30,570 bases of DNA from a virus (Duplodnaviria; Heunggongvirae; Uroviricota; Caudoviricetes). Positions 28,935-29,381 of this stretch are shown here, piece after piece. The notes below the pieces were generated by a model. It worked only from the letters and a program-made list of their open reading frames with translations. It was not told the origin of the DNA and did no database searches. The stretch lies in the IMG/VR virus record IMGVR_UViG_2617270980_000010; one strand, written 5' to 3'. The stretch's first letter is position 1. Each line of letters begins with the position of its first letter. The translations under genes and the position numbers were made by a program.

Positions 28935-28970
28935 AAAAAAAGCCCCGCGATTGCGGGGTTTTGTTTATTT
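28935..28970. terminator. bidirectional rho-independent terminator shared by ogr and the convergent minus-strand gene
   Basis: A7 run, then GCCCCGC-GATT-GCGGGG hairpin, then TTTTGTTTATTTT. Confidence 0.6.
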
Positions 28971-29381
28971 TGACTTTGGCATTCCAAACATATGAGTTTT
29001 TGAGAGCATCATCACTTTAGCTCTGTCATCTGGTTCTTTACCCATCTCGTTACAAGTTGAGAGAGGCTGTTCGAGCACATAACCAAACGCCTTATGTTTA
29101 TTCAGTACGTGCAATTCTTTAGTTGTTTTCATGTAGGAGTCCGGCACATCTTTTGTCCAAACATCCATACAAATTCCTGAGCTTACGATTGCATCATAAA
29201 TTTCAGGTGTGACTTGGTTTGCGTCCAGAACGACAGTCACGACATTATTACTTTCTTTTATTTCAATCGGTTGCCATAATTTTAGTTGTTTTTGTAAAGT
29301 TTTTACGTTATTCGTTTGGGCGTGGGCGCTGATAGACAGAAGAATGGCGACGGTTGCAATTGCCGATTTGAGGTTGAGCAT
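28965..29381 (-). CDS. small secreted (signal-peptide) protein of unknown function, low-GC cargo at the prophage right end
   Basis: 138 aa with a classic Sec signal peptide (MLNLKSAIATVAILLSISAHA/QT) and two cysteines. The coding sequence is visibly AT-rich compared with flanking phage and host genes. Confidence 0.6.
   Translation of the reverse strand: MLNLKSAIATVAILLSISAHAQTNNVKTLQKQLKLWQPIEIKESNNVVTVVLDANQVTPEIYDAIVSSGICMDVWTKDVPDSYMKTTKELHVLNKHKAFGYVLEQPLSTCNEMGKEPDDRAKVMMLSKTHMFGMPKSK

Follow-up and report, generated by a model that had tools for sequence, protein, structure and literature searches.

A predicted exported cargo protein of the PHROG 3807 family encoded between ogr and attP of a P2-like prophage

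Results

A gene for a putative exported protein lies next to ogr

The window analysed here is the whole 30,570-nucleotide (nt) stretch of IMG/VR virus record IMGVR_UViG_2617270980_000010, in which one end of a WPhi-type P2-like prophage is followed by the host gene fieF. Between the late-gene activator ogr, the last conserved phage gene, and the P arm of the phage attachment site attP lies an open reading frame (ORF) of 138 amino acids (aa) with an ATG start, located on the minus strand and referred to below as the cargo gene (Table 1). The G+C content of the ORF is 0.396, both overall and at third codon positions (GC3), compared with 0.541 for the prophage part of the window (the 28.9 kb to the left of the ORF), 0.55 for gpD (GC3 0.61) and 0.52 for fieF; its base composition therefore differs from that of the surrounding phage genome, one of the marks of a moron, or phage-borne accessory gene.

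The predicted product begins with MLNLKSAIATVAILLSISAHA, followed by QTNN, in which a basic residue and a hydrophobic core precede an A-H-A sequence of the A-x-A type recognized by signal peptidase I (SPase I). Cleavage is predicted after this AHA, and the mature protein would comprise 117 aa, with a mass of 13.3 kDa and a pI of approximately 7.9. The presence of an SPase I site, together with the absence of a lipobox and of any further membrane segment, is what would be expected of a periplasmic protein exported by the Sec pathway. Two cysteines, C71 and C110, are found in the mature part; they are invariant among close relatives and nearly so across the wider family. The form encoded in the window additionally carries a short C-terminal extension, GMPKSK. 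Judged by sequence criteria, the ORF is a real gene rather than a chance reading frame, because it matches PHROG 3807 over its full length, belongs to a family of 251 clusters, and is under purifying selection (the median pairwise ratio of nonsynonymous to synonymous substitution rates, dN/dS, among close relatives was 0.20).

The cargo gene and ogr converge on a G+C-rich hairpin which has T runs on both strands and lies between the stop of ogr (28930) and that of the cargo gene (28965). A terminator scan gave hits to this hairpin on both strands. An initial annotation, made from the sequence alone, had described here an AT-rich 138-aa gene encoding a signal peptide and two cysteines and sharing a bidirectional terminator with a convergent ogr, and had noted that P2 has no gene at this position; each of these statements held at the positions given, the last by comparison with both P2 and WPhi. 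Upstream of the cargo gene is a second bidirectional terminator-like hairpin, which alignment identified as the counterpart of the single ogr terminator of WPhi. When the upstream regions of 10 diverse relatives were aligned, this second hairpin was found to be maintained by compensatory changes, and it is predicted to insulate the cargo gene against transcription from the attP/int side. Both hairpins are tagged by a direct repeat, AAA(A/C)AAAGCCCC, with a spacing of 504 nt. The gene is thus flanked at both ends by bidirectional hairpins of its own, a further mark of a moron. An Rfam scan returned only sub-threshold matches, to the terminator hairpins.

A relaxed scan located a candidate sigma-70 promoter, TTGTTT-17-TATAAA, in which the end of the -10 element is 34 nt ahead of the ATG; it is weak, and a stricter scan found none. 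No Ogr-type TGT-N12-ACA dyad was detected upstream of the cargo gene. Closer to the start codon, the 14-nt element ATGTTTAATAAGGA, which includes the Shine-Dalgarno sequence AAGGA, was invariant in the 10 aligned relatives even though their coding sequences were only approximately 45% identical; such conservation exceeds the need of a ribosome-binding site alone, and the element may be a regulatory site.

The cargo gene is located inside the prophage

Whether the gene belongs to the prophage or to a host islet had been left open by the initial annotation, and is settled by the att sites. The cargo gene is phage DNA, 160 bp inside the attR core, since the 47-nt core (GACACCATCCCTGTCTTCCCCCACATGATGTGGGGGTTTTTTTTATC) is identical to the attP core of WPhi and to attB in E. 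coli without the prophage; attB is the terminator of cpxP. The region upstream of the gene is contiguous with the conserved attP arm sites for Int. In prophage-free E. coli the gap between cpxP and fieF is only 148 bp and contains no gene, and among the prophage-free E. coli listed, every match begins at window position 29543; the comparison that the initial annotation had proposed therefore gave no sign of a host core gene. When positions 28600-29700 were used as a query against 5426 complete E. coli genomes, all of them matched, and the whole stretch was present in only 2.

A near-identical locus (99.9% over 1.1 kb) in E. coli strain 600029 places the prophage between cpxP and fieF, with the attL copy of the core just after cpxP (locus L006, 5246-5292). 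Relative to attR, attB and the attP of WPhi, the hairpin stem of attL has two substitutions that compensate each other (CCCCCTCATGATGAGGGGG vs CCCCCACATGATGTGGGGG), from which we infer that crossover takes place no further than ~22 nt into the core (29543-29564). By the same sequence comparison, the prophage is predicted to rebuild an intact cpxP terminator at attL.

Two direct repeats of ATGTGGAC, putative arm-type integrase sites of the P arm by analogy with P2, were invariant in 10/10 relatives and are also found in WPhi; a matching pair occurs in WPhi on the side of int, and also at attL. These are followed by a perfect 11-nt inverted repeat (ATGATATAAAT/ATTTATATCAT), conserved in the relatives and in WPhi, which is probably a binding or bending site for an accessory protein of the integration host factor (IHF) type. 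Two of the 10 aligned relatives have another sequence at the position of the core next to the same arm-plus-gene module, suggesting that the gene is an old resident of the attP arm and not a recent accident.

The same prophage end was also observed in Salmonella Newport NZ_CP051374.1, next to fieF, pfkA and sbp; this record is labelled a 194-kb linear plasmid and looks like a chromosome fragment. It encodes a 98.6% identical copy of the cargo protein, and this phage type thus uses the same site in Salmonella. In E. coli CAVP776 (NZ_CM176338.1), the ogr and cargo gene end is followed directly by int-C-cox of a second P2-like prophage, in tandem at one site.

The gene forms a cassette in a variable slot

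In WPhi and in an empty-slot E. coli prophage, the stop codon of ogr is followed by one hairpin, the two ATGTGGAC repeats, the 11-nt inverted repeat and the core. The window has this same layout plus an insertion of approximately 504 bp, made up of the gene together with a second hairpin and placed between ogr and the attP P arm. The cassette is not present in WPhi or in the empty-slot E. coli prophages, and the gene is not found in P2 at this position; it is dispensable, because both P2 and WPhi do without it. By four of five criteria that can be tested on sequence, the cargo gene is a moron; for the fifth, a promoter of its own, the weak candidate above was the only match. Its anatomy is that of a moron, in that it is insulated and AT-rich, runs against the late operon and can be done without. 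The initial annotation had proposed a moron at the prophage end, and an extra, AT-rich, convergent gene for an exported protein behaves as one.

Among the 5426 E. coli genomes, the 138-aa form was present in 2 and a 43%-identical form of 135 aa in approximately 44, where it occupies the same slot; every gene-bearing example inspected was a P2-like prophage. About 1000 genomes matched only the att-proximal ~80 nt and had no gene, and in an example inspected among these, ogr runs directly up to attR. Across E. coli genomes the slot is therefore empty, or holds the 135-aa or 138-aa homologue, or holds a gene resembling PD-T4-10_B. The last of these is found in E. coli E302, in which the prophage at cpxP-fieF encodes a protein of 213 aa in the ogr-attR slot (locus L025, 2641-3282, plus strand, corresponding to about window 28935-29440). 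This protein matched the PADLOC model PD-T4-10_B with an E-value of 1.3e-34, with no partner gene adjoining, indicating that the slot can hold a known defence component.

Variable cargo between conserved genes of otherwise similar prophages is likewise typical of the hotspots of P2-like phages. Passages of a 2024 preprint describe a third hypervariable hotspot of these phages, extending from a tail gene to the CI repressor (bioRxiv 10.1101/2024.10.15.618418); by the bounds given there, the cargo gene falls within it, between gpD/ogr and attP-int-C and in a region of variable content. The int-att interval of P2-like phages is called a minor defence hotspot in passages of another report (PMC13586616), and in K139-like phages the cI-int locus, which holds glo, is presented in part of a third as a defence hotspot (PMC9122126). 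In the searched passages of these papers, no exported cargo of the PHROG 3807 family is mentioned. Old, Tin and Fun, which are cargo of P2-like hotspots, are not homologous to the protein of the window.

Additional small genes were observed on the other side of attP, between attL and int (window 1-237, plus strand, 78 aa; and, just beyond the window, L006 5412-5747, minus strand, 111 aa), so that this phage carries cargo on both sides of attP. Neither protein had a Pfam, PADLOC or PHROG match. Elsewhere in the window, at the position of the Z/fun hotspot, an ORF of 404 aa (20683-21897, minus strand) is oriented against the tail genes and flanked by the tail-fibre genes and FI; it gave sub-threshold Pfam matches only (the DNA methylase family N6_N4_Mtase, E-value 1.3e-4, and DUF6492) and no PADLOC match. 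At the position of the old/tin hotspot, where an interval separates gpA from the portal gene, an ORF of 112 aa (6371-6709, minus strand) had no Pfam or PADLOC match. The prophage of strain 600029 is otherwise near-identical to that of the window and has an IS1 within replication gene B (L006 8289-8986); in the window, an ORF of 166 aa at the corresponding place (~2180-2680) is intact (2180-2680, plus strand).

PHROG 3807 is widespread on mobile elements

The cargo protein matched PHROG 3807, a family without assigned function that is found chiefly in P2-like phages, with an E-value of 3.8e-64, residues 1-134 aligning with positions 1-134 of the 135-position profile. Homology to a housekeeping periplasmic protein, which the initial annotation had named as a sign of a host gene, was sought in Pfam and NCBIfam scans of the protein, and no model of any kind matched; a Pfam scan of all 91 members of the family alignment returned scattered chance matches, one member each. 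Among 1.84 billion representative sequences, a HMMER search recovered 251 clusters (50% identity) at E <= 1e-3, and 125 at E <= 1e-10.

Members of PHROG 3807 in isolated phages include gp27 of Salmonella phage FSL SP-004, gp16 of Yersinia phage P37, gp35 of Klebsiella phage ST147-VIM1phi7.1 and orf1 of Serratia phage KSP20. Further homologues are encoded by Yersinia phage GMS190 and several Klebsiella phages, and the homologues in isolated phages are 40-52% identical to the protein of the window. The phage members likewise have the signal peptide and two cysteines seen in the window, and their genes share its D/ogr/attP/int neighbourhood and its orientation, on the strand opposite the late genes. 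Among IMG/VR relatives, 80/80 adjoin gpD, 77/80 also adjoin ogr, and most are located at the extreme end of the predicted prophage. In the 91-member alignment, an N-terminal hydrophobic signal was present in 87/91, a mature part with two cysteines and no more in 88/91, and a lipobox-like motif in only 4/91. P38, C71, N94, G100 and C110 are nearly invariant, and the family is marked by the motifs L..W.P, R(V/I)T..IY...G.C, E(I/V).(V/I)LN....QGYVFEGG...C and L.G.TH.

More distant members were found in a divergent P2-like phage, adjoining the gpD homologue; in a non-P2 prophage, directly adjoining its integrase; in integrative islands; on the Pseudomonas megaplasmid pQBR103, immediately following an integrase; on plasmids of Enterobacter and a 5.8-kb plasmid of Halomonas; and in metagenomes of marine and soil origin. 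At each locus examined the gene was single-copy, with no paralogue or immunity-gene arrays. Constant adjacency to an integrase, considered as a possible property of the family, was dropped, having been found in 4/7 inspected non-P2 contexts and in 1/17 further metagenomic or viral loci, the latter figure coming from contigs that were mostly short, tested simply with phmmer. Proteins in which the domain is fused to others (pentapeptide repeats, SH3) were inconsistent, resembled artefacts of gene calling or isolated cases, and gave no functional lead. The GenBank note on FSL SP-004 gp27 (NC_021774.1), "similar to Burkholderia phage KS14 Gp11", is misleading, because gp11 of KS14 is a gpU-like tail protein (PMC3091744). 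Literature searches by accession numbers and by PHROG identifier retrieved no papers.

The mature protein is modelled as a single alpha/beta domain

An AlphaFold2 model built from the 91-sequence alignment reached a mean predicted local distance difference test (pLDDT) score of 90.8 and a predicted template modelling (pTM) score of 0.80, superseding a poor earlier model from 25 sequences (pLDDT 59.5). After residue 22 it contains a single soluble alpha/beta domain, with the predicted topology alpha-beta-beta-alpha-beta-beta-alpha-alpha-beta past the signal peptide, and with C71 and C110 in separate helices. A fold search of BFVD returned only the PHROG 3807 family itself, and sequence searches of the PDB with two profiles gave nothing below an E-value of 0.1. 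The weak fold neighbours that were obtained, alpha-lytic protease prodomain-like and ring-building motifs (protein-binding alpha/beta modules), are generic two-layer alpha/beta modules and correspond to the N-terminal half only. No periplasmic lysozyme inhibitor (Ivy, MliC/PliC or PliG) was found by family hidden Markov model (HMM) or by fold among the matches listed, and no solved exported exclusion or immunity protein gave a convincing fold score. The nearly invariant P, G, C and N residues are structural in kind. Since neither a conserved catalytic set nor a conserved polar cluster is present, the protein is predicted to be a binder rather than an enzyme.

Table 1. Coordinates of the cargo gene and neighbouring features in the window
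Feature	Position	Strand	Basis
ogr, late-gene activator	28712-28930	+	RefSeq annotation of identical locus, ORF
Moron cassette (cargo gene with one copy of the terminator), approximate extent, ~504 bp	28935-29439	both	WPhi alignment, repeat, G+C content 0.394
Bidirectional intrinsic terminator common to ogr (+) and cargo gene (-)	28939-28962	both	Terminator scan, both strands
Cargo gene, putative exported protein	28965-29381	-	ORF, PHROG 3807 match, family conservation, dN/dS ~0.2
Predicted Sec/SPase I-type signal peptide, codons 1-21	29319-29381	-	Read from sequence
Invariant 14-nt element including Shine-Dalgarno AAGGA	29388-29401	-	Alignment of 10 diverse upstream regions
Candidate sigma-70 promoter	29416-29444	-	Relaxed scan, 8/12 matches
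Second bidirectional terminator-like hairpin, upstream of cargo gene	29446-29464	both	Terminator scan, WPhi alignment
Two direct repeats, putative arm-type integrase sites of attP P arm	29475-29493	+	Analogy with P2
Perfect 11-nt inverted repeat in attP arm	29499-29522	both	Repeat search; conserved in relatives and WPhi
attR core, 47 nt	29543-29589	+	Identity with attB and WPhi attP core
fieF, host gene outside prophage	29668-30570	+	Genome matches, annotation

Discussion

The product of the cargo gene is very probably an exported protein carried by the prophage as cargo. Four points are new here: the position of the gene is fixed exactly with respect to attP and WPhi, the cassette is defined, the family is described in its extent and signature, and a confident model without a solved relative is available; members of PHROG 3807 have already been deposited many times as "hypothetical protein", and the hotspot was described in 2024, in the passages of the preprint cited above. 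An exported moron at the end of a P2-type prophage would by itself not surprise specialists.

For the function of the protein, we favour superinfection exclusion at the envelope, protecting the lysogen, with a probability of about 0.3. The phage carries an accessory moron in the form of an AT-rich cassette of approximately 504 bp, with one gene between two bidirectional terminators, and a promoter of its own may drive expression of this gene in the lysogen. The product, bearing a Sec signal peptide, would be exported to the periplasm, where C71 and C110 probably form a disulfide and where the mature part, of about 117 residues, would fold into a compact alpha/beta domain. There it may act as a non-enzymatic binding protein that shields the lysogen at its envelope, its likeliest role being to hinder the penetration of an incoming phage tail tip or the transfer of phage DNA across the periplasm.

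This step is modelled on Glo, an unrelated protein of the P2-related Vibrio phage K139. Glo is a periplasmic protein whose annotation gives it a part in phage exclusion; it is close in size to the protein of the window (137 vs 138 aa), likewise has an N-terminal signal peptide, and contains two cysteines in its predicted mature part, plus C21 near the predicted cleavage site. The glo gene is found at a comparable place, a variable accessory locus at the att/int end of a Peduoviridae prophage, although it is flanked by int and cI within the lysogenic operon, whereas the cargo gene is on the opposite side of attP, next to ogr and in a separate transcription unit. Homology between the two proteins was considered and rejected; BLASTP gave an E-value of 0.41, and hhalign with the 91-sequence profile aligned 14 signal-peptide residues with a probability of 33%. 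Glo may be seen as closely analogous in function, judged by its size, its location and its place in the genome, and not as a homologue. Ltp of the Streptococcus thermophilus phage TP-J34, Llp of T5 and Cor of phi80/N15 are also exported superinfection-exclusion proteins (PMC3952083, in part), and share with the protein of the window a small size, export, a gene close to int/att in a temperate phage and a proposed site of action outside the cytoplasm.

The slot itself would favour a role in defence, given the PD-T4-10_B-like cargo of E302 and the hotspots reported nearby in the passages cited. Nor is the family confined to bacteria of animal hosts; its members on plasmids of Pseudomonas and Halomonas and in metagenomes from sea and soil favour a role at the level of the bacterium over one in animal virulence. 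Several observations weigh against an exclusion function. Known exclusion and defence proteins show no homology to the protein of the window, Glo included; a scan of PADLOC-DB v2 returned 0 families at E <= 1, and Foldseek found no similar solved fold in the PDB at E <= 1e-3. The candidate promoter on which expression in the lysogen would depend scores just 8/12. Hotspots of this kind carry cargo other than defence genes, and the members on plasmids and non-phage islands would equally fit any periplasmic function of benefit to the host. The initial annotation had named superinfection exclusion, periplasmic inhibition and immunity as possible roles; neither sequence nor fold linked the protein to such proteins, and all three remain reasonable guesses.

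We tentatively extend the exclusion reading to the family. Its members might constitute a structurally new class of periplasmic "gatekeeper", a single small disulfide-bonded alpha/beta domain that blocks the entry of phage DNA or another attack crossing the envelope. It is similarly conceivable that such proteins act by binding a periplasmic component and have spread across Gammaproteobacteria by way of P2-like phages, plasmids and integrative islands.

It is also possible, if doubtful, that the protein is an orphan immunity or inhibitor protein directed against an antibacterial effector with its site of action in the periplasm, such as a bacteriocin, a peptidoglycan hydrolase or lipase of the type VI secretion system (T6SS), or a host or phage lysozyme. 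A small exported product, with a probable disulfide and no catalytic signature, would suit such a role, as would the carriage of the gene on several kinds of mobile element, plasmids among them, and the likeness of the weak fold neighbours to inhibitor or prodomain-like modules; the search for lysozyme inhibitors and the absence of immunity-gene arrays have been described above. Lysogenic conversion for some other aspect of host fitness, whether tolerance of envelope stress, binding of a metal or ligand, or interaction with an animal host, appears unlikely.

A function in the lytic cycle, in the control of lysis from the periplasm, the release of progeny or their protection from re-adsorption to lysed cells, is very improbable. 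That many P2-like lineages have retained the gene beside ogr, attP and the tail genes would be in keeping with it, but the gene runs against the late operon and has terminators that insulate it, no Ogr-type promoter dyad precedes it, most P2-like phages lack it, including the fully viable P2 and WPhi, and it occurs on plasmids and non-P2 elements as well. Finally, that the ORF is a non-gene, or a host gene or islet for a housekeeping periplasmic protein abutting the prophage, for which its terminal position by fieF speaks and nothing more, is effectively excluded by its location inside attR, by the gene-free cpxP-fieF regions of prophage-free strains, by its rarity in E. coli, by its occurrence in the isolated phages FSL SP-004, P37 and ST147-VIM1phi7.1, and by purifying selection.

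Exported prophage cargo has long been known to supply functions in superinfection exclusion, immunity and virulence, and here a family of approximately 250 clusters, recurrent at the att end of P2-like phages, has yet to receive a Pfam model. Without any phenotype, the cargo gene would be just another conserved hypothetical moron. As a one-gene cassette of 0.5 kb, for which WPhi and many E. coli prophages provide natural empty-slot controls, it lends itself to cheap functional tests. If the proposed role is correct, the cargo protein would represent a new single-protein defence acting at the level of the envelope, and the ogr-attP side of the att region, which the consulted passages of the hotspot surveys mention in passing, would gain notice as a cargo slot.
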